The notes below the pieces were generated by a model that saw only the letters and a list, made by a program, of their open reading frames with translations, searched no databases and was not told the origin of the DNA. A program made the position numbers and the translations under genes. Below, piece after piece: positions 35 to 5,936 of a DNA stretch of 5,936 nt. Each line of letters starts with the position of its first letter. Positions within the stretch are counted from its first letter, which is position 1. Origin of the DNA: a virus (Duplodnaviria > Heunggongvirae > Uroviricota > Caudoviricetes); the IMG/VR virus record IMGVR_UViG_2695420485_000005. The stretch is one strand, 5' to 3'.

Positions 35-208
35 TCAAAATCGGTGGAGCTGCATGACAAAGTCATCGGGCATTATCTGAACATAAAACACTATCAATAA
101 GTTGGAGTCATTACCCACCCAGGCAAACTCTTTTAATTCATCGTCTTCTGTAAACTGGCTTTTGTCTTTTGACCACCAGTTTTCAAACTGTCGGTAGCTA
201 TCGTTCAC
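35..208 (-). CDS. Hypothetical small protein downstream of ren (about 57 aa from GTG at 206-208; the maximal ORF 35..223 would start at TTG)
   Basis: ORF track 35..223 (-). The first codon is TTG (rc of 221-223) and abuts the terminator T-tract, so I prefer the in-frame GTG (rc of 206-208), which has a G-rich Shine-Dalgarno-like stretch (GGGGGAG) about 6 nt upstream on the minus strand. I do not recognise the protein; coding status is uncertain. Confidence 0.3.
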
Positions 209-220
209 TTCCCTCTCCCC

Positions 221-253
221 CAAATAAAAAGGCCTGCGATTACCAGCAGGCCT
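221..253 (-). terminator. Rho-independent terminator downstream of ren (tR2-like position)
   Basis: Perfect 8-bp stem AGGCCTGC (230-237) / GCAGGCCT (246-253) with an 8-nt loop. On the minus strand the hairpin is followed by TTTTTATTTG (rc of 221-230). It sits just downstream of the ren stop, where lambda carries tR2. Confidence 0.55.
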
Positions 254-278
254 GTTACAAGCTCAGTGATGTAGATGG

Positions 279-569
279 TCATCTTTTAACTCCATATACC
301 GCCAATACCCGTTTCATCGCTGCACTCTGGCGACACTCCTTAAAAATCAGGTTCGTGCTCACCTTTCCTTCCCGTTCTTCCCTGGTAGCAAACCGGTAAT
401 ACACCGTTCGCCAGACCTTACCTTCGATAACCAGAAGACCTGCCCGTGCCATTTTAGCCGCGGCCTGATTTATGCTGGTTACTGTTGCGCCTGTTAGCGC
501 GGCAACGTCCGGCGCACAGAAGCTATTATGCGTCCCCAGGTAATGAATAATTGCCTCTTTGCCCGTCAT
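279..569 (-). CDS. ren: Ren protein (lambda ren homolog, 96 aa)
   Basis: The 96-aa product MTGKEAIIHYLGTHNSFCAPDVAALTGATV... matches lambda Ren almost residue for residue as I recall it. Its start overlaps the P stop (ATGA overlap at 566-569), as in lambda. Confidence 0.85.
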   Translation of the reverse strand: MTGKEAIIHYLGTHNSFCAPDVAALTGATVTSINQAAAKMARAGLLVIEGKVWRTVYYRFATREEREGKVSTNLIFKECRQSAAMKRVLAVYGVKR

Positions 570-1267
570 ACACTTGCTCCTTTCAGTCCGAACTTAGCTT
601 TAATTTCTGCGATCTTCGCCAGCGCCTGAACATGATTTAGAGGTCTGCCGCCCATGACAGGAAGTTGTTTTACTGGTTCAGGGATCACCTCACCACGATT
701 AATTCTCGCAGTCATATGGACAAGCTCATCTGCGGCCTTGCGCCGTAATTCCGCGTCAGTCAGCGCATTGGCCCGCATGTTCTGGTACAGGTTGGTAACC
801 AGCCAGTAGTGCGCGTTTGATTTCCACGGATAAGACTCTGCATCCGGATACAGGCCACGCTTCCGGCAATACTCGTAAACCATATCAACCAGCTCGCTGA
901 CGTTTGGCAGTCCGGCGATAACGGATGCTTCTTCCCGGCACCATGCAACAAACTGCCCGGGTGATGGAAGAAATGGTCGATTCTGCCGACGGGCTACGCG
1001 CATTCCTGCGTTAACCTGTTCCATTGTGGTGATCCCGTTTTCCCGGAAAGCCAGAACCCACTGGCGGCGGATTTCGTTCAGTTCGTTCTGGTCACGGTTA
1101 GCCAGGCTCGCCGGGAAAGTTGCCAGTAACTGGCTGAACACACCGTTGATGATCTGCGCTACCTGCTGTACCTGCGGCTTTTCGTCGTACTGTTCCGGCA
1201 TGTTGTTGGCGATCCGACGCATCTGCTCACGGTCAAAATTAACCATCTGTGCGGCGATGTTTTTCAT
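566..1267 (-). CDS. P: Replication protein P (DnaB helicase loader), 233 aa
   Basis: The 233-aa product MKNIAAQMVNFDREQMRRIANNMPEQYDEKPQV... has the same length and near-identical sequence to lambda P from memory. Its start overlaps the O stop (ATGA at 1264-1267). Confidence 0.95.
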   Translation of the reverse strand: MKNIAAQMVNFDREQMRRIANNMPEQYDEKPQVQQVAQIINGVFSQLLATFPASLANRDQNELNEIRRQWVLAFRENGITTMEQVNAGMRVARRQNRPFLPSPGQFVAWCREEASVIAGLPNVSELVDMVYEYCRKRGLYPDAESYPWKSNAHYWLVTNLYQNMRANALTDAELRRKAADELVHMTARINRGEVIPEPVKQLPVMGGRPLNHVQALAKIAEIKAKFGLKGASV

Positions 1268-2202
1268 AAATCCACCCCGTAAATCCAGTCAGTGTTTGTC
1301 AGGTCGAGTTTTGGTTTTCCGGCTGTCACGCCTGCCTGTTGCTTGTTACGGTTGATTTCGAGTTGGGTCCACTTGTCGCGGAGTTTGGCCGGACTTAGCA
1401 CGTTACCGGACCAGAAGTTGTCCTGGCATGCCCAGCGGAACAGCACGCACATGTCGCGGTGGTTACGTCCGTCACGTTCACGCATCAGGCGGATATCGTT
1501 AGCCCACCCTGCAAAATTCGGTTTTCTGGCTGATGGTGCGATGGTCTTCACCATGTCAAACATCCACTCTGCGGCGGTCAGGTCTTCTGCTGTTCCCCAC
1601 TTGCTGCCGCTCTGAATTGCAGCATCCGGTTTAACCACAGAAAGATCGTTTTCTGGCTGGTCAGAGGATTCGCCAGAATTCTCGGACGAATAATCTTTTC
1701 TTTTTTCTTTTGTAATAGTGTCTTTTGTGTCCCCCTGTTTTGAGGGATAGCAATCCCCTAATTTGAGGGATGTTTTATCCCTCGTTTTAGGGGATTTTCC
1801 CTCGTTTTGAGGGATGTCCCTCATTTTAGGGGAACCTCCCTCGTTTTGAGGGATGCACCATTCTGAGATGTTTTTATTTGGTCCAAACATGCCGCCTTGC
1901 TGCTTGATAATATTCATTCTGACGAGTTCTAACTTGGCTTCATTGCACCGTTTGACAGGTAACTTTGTAATCTCGCTAAGTTGAGAATCGGTGATTCTGT
2001 CCATTGGTTTATTCCACCCATAGGTTTTACGCAGAATGGCAAGCAGCACTTTAAACTGTCGCTTGGTCAGATCTGCGCCTGAATAAGCCTCAATCAGCAT
2101 ATTTGATAGTCTGGCGTAACCATCATCGAGATCTGCCACATTACGCTCCTGTCCGGCAAAGTTACTTCTGCCGAAGTTGAGTATTTTTGCTGTATTTGTC
2201 AT
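1264..2202 (-). CDS. O: Replication initiator protein O, 312 aa (lambda O is 299 aa); contains the origin iterons
   Basis: Product MTNTAKILNFGR...DWIYGVDL matches lambda O from memory. It carries an in-frame 13-aa tandem duplication in the linker (IPQNEGGSPKMRD / IPQNEGKSPKTRD) that corresponds to extra iterons. The iteron array and AT-rich segment lie inside the ORF as in lambda. Confidence 0.95.
   Translation of the reverse strand: MTNTAKILNFGRSNFAGQERNVADLDDGYARLSNMLIEAYSGADLTKRQFKVLLAILRKTYGWNKPMDRITDSQLSEITKLPVKRCNEAKLELVRMNIIKQQGGMFGPNKNISEWCIPQNEGGSPKMRDIPQNEGKSPKTRDKTSLKLGDCYPSKQGDTKDTITKEKRKDYSSENSGESSDQPENDLSVVKPDAAIQSGSKWGTAEDLTAAEWMFDMVKTIAPSARKPNFAGWANDIRLMRERDGRNHRDMCVLFRWACQDNFWSGNVLSPAKLRDKWTQLEINRNKQQAGVTAGKPKLDLTNTDWIYGVDL
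1684..1730. other. AT-rich DNA-unwinding segment of the replication origin
   Basis: The tract TAATCTTTTCTTTTTTCTTTTGTAATAGTGTCTTTTGTGT lies immediately downstream of the iterons in the O reading direction, the same arrangement as ori-lambda. Confidence 0.7.
1731..1853. repeat. ori iterons: six tandem O-binding repeats (consensus on the O-sense strand TCCCTCAAAACGAGGGA)
   Basis: Six copies at about 20-bp spacing: 1731-1748 CCCCCTGTTTTGAGGGAT, 1754-1770 ATCCCCTAATTTGAGGGA, 1777-1794 TCCCTCGTTTTAGGGGAT, 1798-1815 TCCCTCGTTTTGAGGGAT, 1817-1833 TCCCTCATTTTAGGGGA, 1837-1853 TCCCTCGTTTTGAGGGA. Each is an internally palindromic 17-18mer. Lambda has four. Confidence 0.85.
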
Positions 2203-2205
2203 AAT
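2178..2205 (+). promoter_or_regulatory. Candidate pO promoter for the oop antisense RNA
   Basis: -35-like TTGAGT (2178-2183), 16-bp spacer, -10 CATAAT (2200-2205). The -10 overlaps the O start codon on the opposite strand, as in lambda. Confidence 0.4.
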
Positions 2206-2211
2206 GACTCC

Positions 2212-2291
2212 TGTTGATAGATCCAGTAATGACCTCAGAATTCCATCTTGATTTGTTCAGAACGCTCGGTCTTGCACACCGGGCGTTTTTT
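2212..2291 (+). ncRNA. oop: oop-like antisense RNA (about 80 nt) complementary to the 3' end of cII
   Basis: A candidate promoter sits upstream and a strong intrinsic terminator ends at 2291. The transcript would overlap the last ~57 nt of cII (2235-2291) in antisense. Size and position match lambda oop (77 nt). Confidence 0.55.
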
Positions 2292-2534
2292 ATTGGTGAG
2301 TTCATCAAGCGCATACTTAAAAGCCCTGCTAATCGGACTGATGTCTGATGCCATTCCGAAAGCACACAAGACCGAAGCAATAAATCTCCAGTCCGTTCTG
2401 CTTATCTTCGATTCATGACAGCCAATCATCTTTGCCAGACCGCGCTGGGTAAGCGTTGACAGGTTGATGAGTAAATCAGTTTCAGCGCGATCAATTTCTC
2501 GCTGTGATAGTTTGCTGTAACTTGTTTGTTCCAT
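2235..2534 (-). CDS. cII: cII transcriptional activator (99 aa)
   Basis: The C-terminus ...LTNKKRPVCKTERSEQIKMEF matches the lambda cII C-terminus (TNKKRP..TERSEQIQMEF) from memory, while the N-terminal two thirds diverge. Position between cro and O is canonical. Confidence 0.9.
   Translation of the reverse strand: MEQTSYSKLSQREIDRAETDLLINLSTLTQRGLAKMIGCHESKISRTDWRFIASVLCAFGMASDISPISRAFKYALDELTNKKRPVCKTERSEQIKMEF
2262..2291 (+). terminator. Rho-independent terminator (t_oop)
   Basis: Stem ACGCTCGG (2262-2269) / CCGGGCGT (2279-2286) with one mismatch and a 9-nt loop, followed by TTTTT(T)ATT on the plus strand. It lies inside the cII 3' coding region on the opposite strand. Confidence 0.7.
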
Positions 2535-2550
2535 TTCTTAAGATTTCCAA
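2512..2550 (+). promoter_or_regulatory. Candidate pRE (cII-activated promoter) with a cII-box-like direct repeat
   Basis: TTGC-N6-TTGT (2512-2525; lambda cII site is TTGC-N6-TTGC) within the 5' end of cII on the opposite strand, oriented toward cro and cI as in lambda. The -10 is not clear. Confidence 0.35.
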
Positions 2551-2619
2551 TAGTGAATAGCTAGTTGAAAGGTATGCGTGGAAACGCATATGGCCTTAGT
2601 TGGTCAGATATATTGGGAC

Positions 2620-2665
2620 TCGCTTTGTCAGCGACGTAGGACGAATGTCCATTGTGAAAAGAGCG
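2620..2665 (-). promoter_or_regulatory. nutR: boxA (CGCTCTTTT) plus boxB hairpin (TCGCT-GACAA-AGCGA)
   Basis: On the minus strand, boxA CGCTCTTTT (rc of 2657-2665) begins 7 nt after the cro stop. boxB is a 5-bp stem with a GACAA loop (rc of 2620-2634), separated from boxA by a 22-nt spacer. The same CTACG-N-CGCTGACAAAGCG core recurs upstream of N. Confidence 0.6.
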
Positions 2666-2672
2666 GTGTTAC

Positions 2673-2906
2673 TTATGCAGCCGATGCTCTACGCGATACG
2701 AACACTAGGTTTTCCTTTTTCACAGGTTTATAACCCGTGAAATTACGAGTAGCTTCTTCGATTGCATTCGCTTTATCAGGGGAAGCTCTTCGAAATCCAT
2801 ATGCAATCTGGTCAAGATAGCCAACTGAAGTTTTCGCTAATGCGGCGAGTCGCTTCCATTCCTCACTAGAAGCCTCTTTTCGCCAGCGTAGTAGTTCATT
2901 ACTCAT
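2673..2906 (-). CDS. cro: Cro-like HTH repressor (77 aa), non-lambda
   Basis: Small protein with a helix-turn-helix-like segment (TSVGYLDQIAYGF), first gene leftward of the operator region and divergent from cI. Good SD (GGAGG, rc of 2911-2915) 5 nt before the ATG. Confidence 0.75.
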   Translation of the reverse strand: MSNELLRWRKEASSEEWKRLAALAKTSVGYLDQIAYGFRRASPDKANAIEEATRNFTGYKPVKKENLVFVSRRASAA

Positions 2907-2933
2907 TAGTGCCTCCGTTTATCACACAGAACA

Positions 2934-3003
2934 ACTTTACCATTTTGATAAATAATCCGCAATGTAAATTTATCATATTGCGTATTTATCCATTTGCTAA
3001 ATA
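2934..3003. promoter_or_regulatory. OR operator region with divergent pR / pRM (17-bp TTTAYC-N5-GATAAA-type sites)
   Basis: Between cro and cI. 17-bp near-palindromes: 2936-2952 TTTACCATTTTGATAAA and 2985-3001 TTTATCCATTTGCTAAA, plus a weaker site 2969-2985 TTTATCATATTGCGTAT. Candidate pR on the minus strand: -35 TTGCGG (rc of 2957-2962), 17-bp spacer, -10 TAAAGT (rc of 2934-2939). pRM could not be pinned down. Confidence 0.55.
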
Positions 3004-3019
3004 GAGGGAAAATTGTGAG

Positions 3020-3724
3020 ATGGAAAACAAAGATATTCGCAAATCGAATCTGGCGTTTTTGCTAGATGAGCATAAAAAAATCGCGGGTAACACTAATGCA
3101 AGCTTTGCCGATAAGCTTGGGGTTAGCCCTTCTCAACTCACGCAAGTCTCCGGTGAAAAAAGCACTCGAAACATAGGGGATAAACTAGCAAGAAAATTTG
3201 AAGCCGCGCTTGGGTTACCTAATGGGTGGCTTGATTTGGTACATGATGTAACACCAATTGCATCATGCTCAGATTCTTTAACTTTTGTCGGTCAGGTAAG
3301 AAAAGGGTTAGTGCGCGTGGTTGGTGAGGCAATTCTTGGTGTTGATGGTGCCATCGAGATGACCGAAGAGCGCGATGGGTGGCTCAAAATTTATAGCGAT
3401 GATCCAGATGCCTTTGGTCTTCGTGTGAAAGGAGACAGCATGTGGCCCAGAATAAAATCAGGAGAATATGTACTCATTGAGCCTAACACCAAAGTATTCC
3501 CGGGTGATGAGGTGTTTGTCAGAACCGTTGAAGGACACAACATGATTAAGGTTCTTGGCTATGACAGAGATGGAGAATACCAATTTACAAGCATTAACCA
3601 GGATCACAGGCCTATAACGTTGCCTTATCATCAAGTAGCAAAGGTGGAGTATGTAGCTGGTATTCTGAAGCAATCTCGCCATCTGGATGACATCGAGGCA
3701 AGGGAGTGGCTGAAAAGTTCGTGA
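3020..3724 (+). CDS. cI: cI-type prophage repressor (234 aa): N-terminal HTH plus C-terminal LexA-like S24 autopeptidase domain
   Basis: N-terminus has an HTH-like segment (SFADKLGVSPSQLTQVSG). C-terminal domain has the Ser/Lys dyad context typical of LexA/cI (GDSMWP ... NMIKVL). Divergent from cro across the operators; SD AGAGGGA upstream. Confidence 0.9.
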   Translation: MENKDIRKSNLAFLLDEHKKIAGNTNASFADKLGVSPSQLTQVSGEKSTRNIGDKLARKFEAALGLPNGWLDLVHDVTPIASCSDSLTFVGQVRKGLVRVVGEAILGVDGAIEMTEERDGWLKIYSDDPDAFGLRVKGDSMWPRIKSGEYVLIEPNTKVFPGDEVFVRTVEGHNMIKVLGYDRDGEYQFTSINQDHRPITLPYHQVAKVEYVAGILKQSRHLDDIEAREWLKSS

Positions 3725-3784
3725 CTTCATCGTCACATAGCTGGTAACCAGTGGCCAGAAGAAACGTTTGGGTGAGGAGGATAG

Positions 3785-4126
3785 ATGGCGTTCACTGACC
3801 TTGAATATCAAGCGGTCAAAAAAGAAGTTCACCAATTCATTGAAAGCATAAGGCCGCCTGAACATATCCGCAATGAACTGGATATTGTTTATAGCATCAA
3901 TGACCAAACGATAGATATCGGCGAACAGCGCCCCGTGTGGCAGGGCAACCCAGGTGAAACAAACATCCTGCCATCAGCAAGAATCAAGTACATACGTTCT
4001 CTGGATAGATGGAAAATCTATTGGATGCGGAAGGATATGAAATGGCATCAGTACAGTACTGAACTTTCGCTGACTGATGCGCTTGAGCTTGTGCGTGCTG
4101 ACCCGGATTGCTGCTTCTTCGGATGA
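3785..4126 (+). CDS. Hypothetical protein (113 aa), first gene of the cargo cassette downstream of cI
   Basis: SD GAGGAGG (3774-3780) 4 nt upstream of the ATG. Same strand as cI, 60 bp after the cI stop. No motif I can assign; ends in ...DPDCCFFG. Confidence 0.6.
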   Translation: MAFTDLEYQAVKKEVHQFIESIRPPEHIRNELDIVYSINDQTIDIGEQRPVWQGNPGETNILPSARIKYIRSLDRWKIYWMRKDMKWHQYSTELSLTDALELVRADPDCCFFG

Positions 4127-4196
4127 GTGAAGAGACGTTTGGATGATGGATGATCGCAGAGATGCTCGTAGAGCATACAGCGATGCAGGAGAATTT

Positions 4197-4631
4197 ATGG
4201 CACTTAATTTAGAAAGAATATCTTTTATAACCCCATTTGATAGCAGCGAAGAACCCAACCAACCGACGCTTAATTTTACATGCAATGAATTTCCTGCGCG
4301 GCTATCAATTGATTTCAGGGTTGGTATGATCGGGTTGAAACCAAATTCAAGATATAATTTGGGTATTATGGTAATCCCCGCGCACCTAATTATAAAAAAA
4401 GGTGAGGAAATTCAATTCCCTGACGGCTCTTCGGAATCAGTTTCACTTTTCATCGATACGAAAGATAGCCATTTTGAAACAGGGGTTGGCGGACAGGTAA
4501 TAGTAACATTGAAAGAAATTAGGGTCCCAGCTAAAGGGCTGTATAGTGTTATAGGGATATTGCAAGATAATGAAGACCCTAAAAATGAACTTCATAAAAA
4601 TGAATCATTTTTCACCGTAGAGCTATTATGA
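4197..4631 (+). CDS. Hypothetical protein (145 aa from ATG 4197; maximal ORF from 4143 = 162 aa), AT-rich, translationally coupled to the downstream gene
   Basis: The in-frame ATG at 4197 has a good SD (AGGAG 4187-4191, 5-nt spacer), whereas the ATG at 4143 has none, so I prefer 4197. The stop overlaps the next start (ATGA at 4628-4631). The region is visibly AT-rich compared with the flanking phage genes. Confidence 0.55.
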   Translation: MALNLERISFITPFDSSEEPNQPTLNFTCNEFPARLSIDFRVGMIGLKPNSRYNLGIMVIPAHLIIKKGEEIQFPDGSSESVSLFIDTKDSHFETGVGGQVIVTLKEIRVPAKGLYSVIGILQDNEDPKNELHKNESFFTVELL

Positions 4632-5248
4632 GTGACGACAGTAATTTAAATAATCATGGAAAGCAAGACACCAACATATCTGAAAGCCGGAGGTTGAAGG
4701 TTGTTGGCGGTTCCGATTTTGAGGCTGAATTTGATAATTCTCCCACCAAGGTGCAAAATAATTACATAAAACCGCCACAAACGGAGGAAGAAGTGGGAAC
4801 GATCAGCAGAGAGGAACTTGATGCTCGCTTAGCTGCTAATAAAGCAGAGATGGAGTCTATTGCTTCTTCCATTAGGGCTGACATGGCTCTATCTCGTGAA
4901 AGCGTTAATGTCCAATTTGCATCACTTAATGCAGCCATAAGCTCTCTATCGTCCAAGATCGATGGAAAGATGGATAGCGCTGCTGGCGATATAAAAGCAA
5001 TTAATGGGAGATTCGAAGGAATTCAAGGACAAATAACAGGGGTTAATACCGCAATTAGTGGTGTTCAGTCGGGTATTTCTATACGATTAGCCATTTTTAG
5101 TGTCATTATCGCTGTAATAGTTGCGATTCCCGGGCTGGTATCAGCTTTAAAGTCAGACCACGTACCTTTGCAACAGCCTTCCACTTTGCAAGCGCCGCCA
5201 CAAAATACCCAGCCAACAGACAACAAAAAAATCACTCCCCAGCATTAA
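4628..5248 (+). CDS. Hypothetical tail-anchored membrane protein (206 aa): cytoplasmic coiled-coil/repeat region, single C-terminal TM helix, Pro/Gln-rich tail
   Basis: Hydrophobic stretch LAIFSVIIAVIVAIPGLVSAL near the C-terminus. The preceding region shows an ~11-residue periodicity (GDIKAINGRFE / GIQGQITGVNT / AISGVQSGISI). C-terminal tail is PLQQPSTLQAPPQNTQPTDNKKITPQH. No signal peptide. Confidence 0.6.
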   Translation: MSDDSNLNNHGKQDTNISESRRLKVVGGSDFEAEFDNSPTKVQNNYIKPPQTEEEVGTISREELDARLAANKAEMESIASSIRADMALSRESVNVQFASLNAAISSLSSKIDGKMDSAAGDIKAINGRFEGIQGQITGVNTAISGVQSGISIRLAIFSVIIAVIVAIPGLVSALKSDHVPLQQPSTLQAPPQNTQPTDNKKITPQH

Positions 5249-5256
5249 CGCATTAA

Positions 5257-5282
5257 CCCGGCCTCAGCGCCGGGTTTTCTTT
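5257..5282 (+). terminator. Rho-independent terminator ending the cI/cargo operon (tIMM-like)
   Basis: Stem CCCGGC (5257-5262) / GCCGGG (5269-5274), 6-nt loop, followed by TTTTCTTTG. It lies 9 nt after the stop of the 206-aa gene. Confidence 0.7.
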
Positions 5283-5462
5283 GCCTCACGATCCCCACAC
5301 CTAAAAACACATAACCAATTGTATTTGTTGAAAAATAAATAGATACAACTTGCTAAACAACGCAATCCAGATCTCCCTCAAATCTCTTTATTTATCCTGT
5401 CGAATTCCTACAACAAAATAAAACACCATAAGAATCAATACGATATTTGAAAACCAAGAGAA

Positions 5463-5505
5463 TTTATCATTTTGCTATTGTCATTAATTTATCATTCCGA
5501 TAAAG
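5463..5505 (+). promoter_or_regulatory. OL operators with candidate pL
   Basis: A perfect 17-bp palindrome TTTATCATTCCGATAAA (5488-5504) and an adjacent site TTTATCATTTTGCTATT (5463-5479) 25 bp apart share the half-site used in OR. Candidate pL: -35 TTGTCA (5478-5483) with a poor -10 (ATAAAG/GATAAA, 5499-5505), oriented toward N. Confidence 0.5.
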
Positions 5506-5574
5506 TTCACCCATCAGCAGGACGCACTACTCACCAGGGCGGTGAATATACAACGATTCGAATATGAATCTACG

Positions 5575-5589
5575 GCGCTGACAAAGCGC
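5575..5589 (+). promoter_or_regulatory. nutL boxB hairpin (GCGCT-GACAA-AGCGC)
   Basis: 5-bp stem with a GACAA loop, preceded by CTACG exactly as in nutR. It lies in the leader between the putative pL and N. No convincing boxA was found upstream (best is a weak CGCACTACT at 5523-5531). Confidence 0.6.
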
Positions 5590-5754
5590 AATAACCAAAG
5601 TGAACTTTGGGGTGTGGTGAAGGGTTCATGGACGGGAATATGTCGCACGTAAAGCGGCGAGGCCTGCGGGACTATTGCCGAATTGAAGTAGGCCGAAACA
5701 GGTCGAAATGGGTCTCCCACCTACCACACCACCAAAGTTCATCAGGAGGTCTAT

Positions 5755-5936
5755 ATGACACGCAGAACTCAGTTCAAAGGCAATTCACGTTCTCGTCGTC
5801 GTGAGCGTTTAAAGGCAAAGGCATTAGCTAACGGCGTACTGGCCCGCGAAGAAGCAATAAGTTCAGAAGTATTACACCGCCCTACTCTAAGCAGAGCGCA
5901 GATTCAGGCTAAAGGTACTCACGAAACGCCTGAGCG
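5755..5936 (+). CDS. N: N-type transcription antitermination protein, 5' portion (runs off the window end)
   Basis: ATG at 5755 with SD AGGAGG (5744-5749). The translation MTRRTQFKGNSRSRRRERLKAKALANGVLAREE... has an arginine-rich motif near the N-terminus as in N proteins, and I recall this N-terminus from Stx-phage (H-19B/933W-type) N. The open frame continues to the window end. Not in the ORF track because there is no stop in the window. Confidence 0.8.
   Translation, partial: MTRRTQFKGNSRSRRRERLKAKALANGVLAREEAISSEVLHRPTLSRAQIQAKGTHETPE

Follow-up and report, generated by a model that had tools for sequence, protein, structure and literature searches.

The window, i.e., the whole stretch of 5936 bp that was analyzed, is a lambdoid prophage's early control region and is oriented in the direction of pL. 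Positions 116-5936 showed up to 99.5% identity to prophages in complete E. coli genomes, and the section from 2400 to 3020 was 99.4-99.7% identical to H-19B, BP-4795, ST2-8624 and many Stx1a phages. The genes and control elements flanking the site of interest were located as follows:

279-569, minus strand: ren.
566-1267, minus strand: P.
1264-2202, minus strand: O.
2235-2534, minus strand: cII (Pfam Phage_CII, E 3e-35), the first gene downstream of nutR/tR1.
2673-2906, minus strand: cro, an ORF annotated as cro in H-19B, BP-4795 and ST2-8624 (99.4-99.7% DNA identity).
2972-3000, minus strand: pR-like sigma-70 promoter TTAGCA-17-TATGAT, found by a consensus scan and driving cro, nutR and cII.
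3020-3724, plus strand: cI (Peptidase_S24).
3785-5248, plus strand: three accessory ORFs.
5255-5276, plus strand: terminator upstream of the pL-like promoter.

In ST2-8624 and HK106, pR/oR features are annotated at the position that corresponds to the pR-like promoter. An earlier note on this DNA had proposed a nutR with a boxA and a boxB of the form TCGCT-GACAA-AGCGA at 2620-2665, and both the coordinates and the motifs held. This nutR is read on the minus strand, corresponding to the pR transcript, and its boxA begins 7 nt after the cro stop codon, upstream of cII. The minus strand carries, in this order, the pR-like promoter (3000-2972), cro (2906-2673), nutR (2665-2620) and cII (2534-2235), which places the site in the early transcript after pR and cro and before the first terminator and cII. 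It is composed of these parts, followed by the tR1 region:

2657-2665, minus strand: boxA CGCTCTTTT (RNA CGCUCUUUU) with a C at the critical BoxA position 4; the identical 9-mer is annotated as nutR boxA in HK106.
2635-2656, minus strand: spacer CACAATGGACATTCGTCCTACG of 22 nt (RNA CACAAU-GGACAUUCGUCC-UACG).
2639-2650, minus strand: spacer hairpin GGAC-AUUC-GUCC of 4 bp, from RNA folding.
2635-2638, minus strand: linker UACG between the spacer hairpin and boxB.
2620-2634, minus strand: boxB UCGCU-GACAA-AGCGA, supported by folding, shuffles, the HK106 annotation and stem covariation.
2535-2619, minus strand: tR1 region from boxB to cII, identical to H-19B.

The boxA resembles the CGCUCUU(U)A of known nut sites and agrees with the consensus GYTCTTTAANA at positions 1-7, including the critical C4, while positions 8-9 depart from it. 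The boxB has a 5-bp stem and a loop of the G-first, GNRA-like kind with 4-5 nt that is typical of nut sites, and its RNA structure is supported. RNA folding predicted the boxB hairpin and, in addition, a spacer hairpin that the earlier note had not mentioned. The spacer between boxA and boxB (2656-2635) indeed measures 22 nt, compared to the roughly 8 nt that had been given for lambda, where the actual spacers are 8-9 nt long. Since 12 of the 22 nt are occupied by the spacer hairpin, about 10 single-stranded nt are left, a number near that of lambda. With GGAC-AUUC-GUCC, the nutR spacer shows the dyad symmetry that characterizes long spacers of the H-19B type.

At the other end of the window, the pL operon begins with a second nut site and the start of gene N:

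5478-5506, plus strand: pL-like promoter TTGTCA-17-TAAAGT, from a promoter scan; inferred transcript start at about 5513.
5523-5531, plus strand: nutL 'boxA' CGCACUACU (CGCACTACT), assigned according to the HK106 and 933W annotation; a poor match to the BoxA consensus.
5532-5574, plus strand: nutL spacer of 43 nt with two hairpins by folding and then UACG at 5571-5574.
5531-5545, plus strand: predicted spacer hairpin 1, UCACC-AGGGC-GGUGA.
5555-5570, plus strand: predicted spacer hairpin 2, GAUUC-GAAUAU-GAAUC; relatives keep the stem, and the loop varies.
5575-5589, plus strand: nutL boxB GCGCU-GACAA-AGCGC; its loop is that of nutR, and the whole boxB is identical to the nutL boxB of P22.
5755-5936, plus strand: beginning of gene N with its first 60 codons, cut off by the end of the window.

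The pL-like region is identical to that of H-19B except for 1 base, and pL and its transcript start are given by the HK106 annotation. Up to position 5613, the leader with its nutL shows no difference from H-19B. Over its first 60 codons, the N protein encoded in the window matched H-19B N at 59 of 60 residues, and the arginine-rich motif FKGNSRSRRRERLKAKALANG is identical. H-19B N itself matched the Pfam family PF25694 (N_peptide) with an E value of 1.6e-15, whereas a search of the 60-aa N fragment against PDB sequences gave no matches even at E ≤ 10. The window thus holds a cognate N, cut by the window end, together with a nutL that has the same boxB loop. The boxB hairpin of nutR is the predicted binding site for the arginine-rich motif of N, and the H-19B-type N whose gene begins in the window would act at nutR.

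To relate the site to known systems, it was compared with the nut sites of named phages. In HK106 (EF120461), boxA, spacer and boxB were identical to the window in 46 of 46 positions, including the C in boxA, and are annotated as 'nutR boxA' and 'nutR boxB'. In 933W (AF125520), the annotated nutR (13096-13141) has the same extent of 46 nt and matched in 45 positions. The same value was obtained for H-19B (AF034975), to which the earlier note had linked long-spacer nut sites and which shares the position of nutR, the 22-nt spacer, the spacer hairpin, boxB, the tR1 region and the cognate N. Over the whole cro-cII interval, 140 of 141 positions were identical between H-19B and the window, and the single difference is a base of boxA. 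The site is therefore nearly identical to the experimentally characterized nutR of H-19B. Differences to H-19B were present in the interior of the N leader and in the accessory genes that separate cI from pL, and those to HK106 and 933W in the cI/cro immunity genes and the cargo genes.

Lambda shares with the window the order of boxA, spacer and a boxB with a 5-bp stem, a G-first, purine-rich pentaloop, the location of the sites after cro and after pL, and the overlap of nutR with a Rho-dependent tR1. Its sites are CGCTCTTA-CACATTCCA-GCCCTGAAAAAGGGC for nutR and CGCTCTTA-AAAATTAA-GCCCTGAAGAAGGGC for nutL, both with spacers lacking a hairpin. The loops of lambda are GAAAA or GAAGA, in line with the earlier description of the GACAA loop as different from a GAAAA-type one, and the stem GCCCU/AGGGC and the N motif are lambda's own as well. 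A sister class formed by VT2-Sakai, epsilon34 and g341c is identical to the window in the spacer hairpin, the UACG linker, the boxB stem and the position of the site. This class, to which S107 also belongs, has a 4-nt GAAA loop in both nutR and nutL, and its N proteins carry the motif FKGTAASRRRARRANLQ or FNGSAAGRRRERRAALQ instead of FKGNSRSRRRERLKAKALANG.

Non-conservation of the hairpin in related phages had been named beforehand as a ground for refutation, but the boxB hairpin proved to be conserved. In diverged Salmonella and Enterobacter phages, whose flanks were only about 72% identical or could not be aligned, the block GGACATTCGTCC-TACG-TCGCT...GCGA was kept. Among 120 viral contigs containing the 23-nt core, the loop was GACAA in 56 and GAAA in 64. 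As the core scan fixes the hairpin by construction, conservation was re-tested on loci chosen by N alone, i.e., viral contigs with an N at least 98% identical to H-19B N and at least 4.5 kb of upstream sequence (n = 60). The same nutR was found in all 60 of them, at distances from N of 1.4 to 3.8 kb, and this variable distance shows that many different immunity cassettes lie between the two. A further GACAA hairpin, CUCCG-GACAA-GUGGA in the O gene, was encountered at 19 loci only when G.U pairs were allowed and was judged to be a chance match in coding sequence.

The loop class co-segregated with the class of the N arginine-rich motif in 61 of 61 contigs, these being the ones among the 120 that had N on the same contig. 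The GACAA loop was paired with the motif FKG[NT]SR[SA]RRRERLKAKALANG and the GAAA loop with the two motifs of the sister class; the third residue after the conserved Gly is Ala in the GAAA class and Arg or Lys in the GACAA class. Where a nutL boxB was detected, it shared the loop class of nutR, with GACAA accompanying GACAA, and GAAA, or GCAA in three contigs, accompanying GAAA. This coupling of loop type and N motif type supports the proposal that the site has an N specificity unlike that of lambda.

The boxB stems covaried across nut sites, the outer pair being U-A, G-C, C-G or A-U. For a small, hand-picked set of seven gap-free boxB sequences of 15 nt, the covariation score was 0.571 versus 0.143, with 94% of the cells paired, and none of 500 shuffles reached this score. 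When 15 nutL and nutR sites were aligned with MAFFT, the 4-nt and 5-nt loops were misplaced against each other, and this alignment was left out of the pair counts. In SPN9CC, the nutR boxB has a U.G closing pair, which is compatible only with an RNA of the nutR strand. The spacer hairpin of nutR was almost invariant at the N-selected loci; the one variant, GGAC to GGGC at 3 loci, changes an A-U to a G.U pair and keeps the pairing. The nutL sites have hairpins of unrelated sequence at the same place (GAUUC...GAAUC, GUCGA...UCGAC) with variable loops, followed by UACG and boxB, an arrangement that speaks for the spacer hairpin having a structural role. Folding, published footprinting and the analogy with these nutL hairpins support the structure of the spacer hairpin at nutR. 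All nutR and nutL sites of the two loop classes (loci L021-L140) had the UACG linker directly after the C at the end of the spacer hairpin, though the hairpin sequences differ.

The nutR of H-19B was reportedly studied by Neely and Friedman in 1998 and 2000. According to their later work, H-19B N is said to require NusA but not NusB or S10 and to dispense with boxA, whereas lambda N needs NusB, S10 and boxA; the dyad symmetry of the spacer reportedly acts as a 'reducer' that draws the flanking elements together. Reporter fusions and templates with the nutR/tR1 region of H-19B were used by the Sen laboratory (PMC3526286; PMC4499122). In the former study, tR1 of H-19B was Rho-dependent in vivo and in vitro, wild-type N gave about 34% read-through at nutR/tR1, and the N motif mutants R3H, S11F, R15C, R15P and R18P were defective in antitermination at this site (PMC3526286). 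Two hairpins were described in the H-19B nutR, and RNase H and T1 protection revealed that N together with NusA/NusG shields the spacer and the G of the boxB loop, and that Rho alone shields the spacer of about 22 nt (PMC3526286). N-dependent antitermination was thus demonstrated for a nearly identical nutR/tR1, and by analogy it would be expected at the nutR of the window.

In the proposed mechanism, transcription from pR through cro would give an RNA with boxA, the 22-nt spacer with its small hairpin, and the boxB hairpin. N would be expressed from the pL operon, which has the matching nutL in its leader, and the arginine-rich N-terminus of N would bind the GACAA loop of boxB, while NusA would bind the nutR spacer. 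Tethered to RNA polymerase, the complex of N, NusA and RNA would confer resistance to the Rho-dependent terminator tR1, which would overlap and trail nutR, and to later terminators. The resulting read-through would allow cII, O, P and the genes further downstream to be expressed.

Taken together, we are highly confident that positions 2620-2665 on the minus strand represent nutR of a lambdoid prophage of E. coli of the H-19B/933W/HK106 type. A chance inverted repeat, or a palindrome acting at the DNA level, e.g., as an operator for a protein, with no RNA function, might be considered because the stem is short (5 bp) and the boxA 9-mer taken alone is not significant (1 match in the window with at most 1 mismatch versus 1.7 expected). 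However, perfect 5-bp/GACAA hairpins occur exactly twice in the window, at 2620-2634 (minus strand) and 5575-5589 (plus strand), in agreement with the positions and strands to be expected of nutR and nutL, whereas 2000 dinucleotide shuffles contained 0.016 such hairpins on average and none of them two or more. Together with the compensatory changes in the stem, the strand-specific U.G pair and the conservation at all N-selected loci, this has effectively refuted a chance repeat, the probability of which we consider negligible.

Another explanation is that the segment serves only as a rut or terminator element of tR1, the likeness to boxA and boxB being incidental and N having no role. The lambda annotation has rutA overlapping boxA plus spacer and rutB located behind boxB, the footprint of Rho on the H-19B spacer fits such a function, and a scan of the cro-cII region for intrinsic (T-tract) terminators found none, consistent with a Rho-dependent tR1. 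Yet the two roles do not compete: nutR overlaps the Rho loading region of tR1, and nut and rut functions coexist there, N and NusA protecting the spacer and boxB of H-19B as well. Moreover, the N motif mutants lose antitermination at this same site in H-19B, and changes in the loop go along with those in the N motif type and in nutL, which is not accompanied by a tR1. An exclusive rut function is therefore very unlikely. A site of the P22 type, served by a P22-like N (gene 24) with standard host-factor needs, was suggested by the loop: as the earlier note had stated, both nutL and nutR of P22 have GACAA, and the nutL boxB of P22 (GCGCUGACAAAGCGC, within GCTCTTTAA-CTTCGATGAT-GCGCTGACAAAGCGC) is identical to that of the window. 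Furthermore, H-19B N and P22 gp24 align and are homologous in the arginine-rich motif F.G....RR..R and in the C-terminal residues VALYAAG.RKSKQ.TAR. Over their full length, however, the two proteins were only about 40% identical in this alignment, compared to the 59 of 60 residues shared by the N of the window and H-19B N. P22 has a consensus boxA (GCUCUUUA), spacers of about 10 nt without a hairpin, and a nutR boxB with a C.C closing mismatch (CCGCC-GACAA-CGCGG), while the window site has its 22 nt with a hairpin and an H-19B-type N and is identical to H-19B, 933W and HK106 in 45-46 of 46 positions. The assignment to P22 is thus highly improbable and, judged by the near-identity of N and the short P22 spacers, the nutR of the window is to be classed with H-19B despite its P22-like loop.

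The nutR boxA occurs in two forms that are one base apart, CGCTCTTTT in the window and HK106 and CGCTATTTT in H-19B and 933W. The base in question lies at the critical BoxA position and is C in the window and A in H-19B and 933W. In the N-selected sample, 37 sites had A, 21 had C and 2 had another base; among the GACAA-class contigs of the core scan, the corresponding numbers were 27, 23 and 2. The 46-mer was present in 435 of 5426 complete E. coli genomes, and the exact nutR allele of the window was found in 99 records, including an O104:H4 strain. In the BoxA consensus GYTCTTTAANA, C4 is critical, and C4A has been used to inactivate BoxA (Baniulyte et al., bioRxiv 10.1101/091223). The allele of H-19B and 933W therefore corresponds to a natural C4A exchange, whereas the window keeps C4. 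Given two natural alleles within the H-19B N family, the reported independence of boxA, NusB and S10 might be partly allele-specific, an idea that we consider rather unlikely. If true, the nutR of the window could recruit NusB-S10 and differ in its host-factor dependence or efficiency. We infer that the single base difference in boxA would leave an H-19B-like behavior of nutR unchanged.

In nutL, the counterpart of the annotated 'boxA' CGCACTACT in an alignment with lambda is not lambda's boxA but CGCACTGAC, the 5' end of the pL leader. Probably, the 'boxA' in the nutL of H-19B-type sites is not a true BoxA and would not function as one, which fits boxA independence. In contrast to the H-19B-type nutL, that of the VT2-Sakai type has a near-consensus boxA (GCTCTTTAAAC).

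In nearly identical phages, nutR with its long structured spacer and N specificity has already been described, annotated and tested, and the element thus reveals no new biology. Mildly new points are comparative and represent modest refinements, namely that N motif and boxB loop are coupled over a large number of immunity cassettes, that boxA has two alleles, and that the UACG linker is conserved. The site controls delayed-early expression in a prophage family that includes the Shiga toxin phages H-19B and 933W, in which N-dependent read-through from pR ultimately feeds the expression of Q and the toxin. Recognition of nutR also aids prophage annotation, because PGAP does not annotate the site and, in the present case, misses even N. 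For the closest complete genome (E. coli O55:H7 USDA5905, locus L141, 7455-7523), PGAP gives a partial 'regulator' pseudogene of 69 nt where N is expected. N and the nut sites are under-annotated in RefSeq prophages. In all of the listed E. coli genomes, nutR was without any feature.

Rfam contains no nut or boxB family; at a permissive threshold, no match to a nut or boxB family was obtained, and the only matches were spurious, sub-threshold snoRNA-like ones on the O-gene iterons. These iterons, at 1735-1855, consist of repeated TCCCTCAAAACGAGGGA-like units and form the replication origin. Positions 1-118 of the window are the terminal part of an IS1 element inserted downstream of ren; this end is 100% identical to the IS1A/IS1B ends on thousands of plasmids, and in related prophages the match to the window starts only at position 116. 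The accessory cassette on the plus strand (3785-5248), between cI and the terminator preceding pL, encodes a DUF3024 protein, an unknown ORF of 162 aa and an ORF of 206 aa with a hydrophobic segment at its C-terminal end. The same slot is occupied by stk in 933W and by hicAB in HK106, compared to DUF3024 and two unknown ORFs in the window.

Two further structures were observed in the early transcripts. Within the tR1 region, a 7-bp hairpin (UAUGCGU-UUCC-ACGCAUA, 2573-2590, minus strand) is present that is not followed by a T-tract, and hairpins of different sequence were found at the equivalent place in g341c, where it is annotated as a putative tR, and in S107, P22 and lambda. In the N leader (5596-5745, plus strand), a long-range stem was predicted in which AAAGUGAACUUUGGGGUG... 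pairs with ...CACCACCAAAGUUCAU around about 100 nt, with a fold z-score of -3.35. The flanks of the stem match H-19B exactly, whereas unrelated sequence has taken the place of the interior, and each version lengthens the stem by complementary bases of its own. This stem sits where lambda has the RNase III-sensitive hairpin of its N leader.
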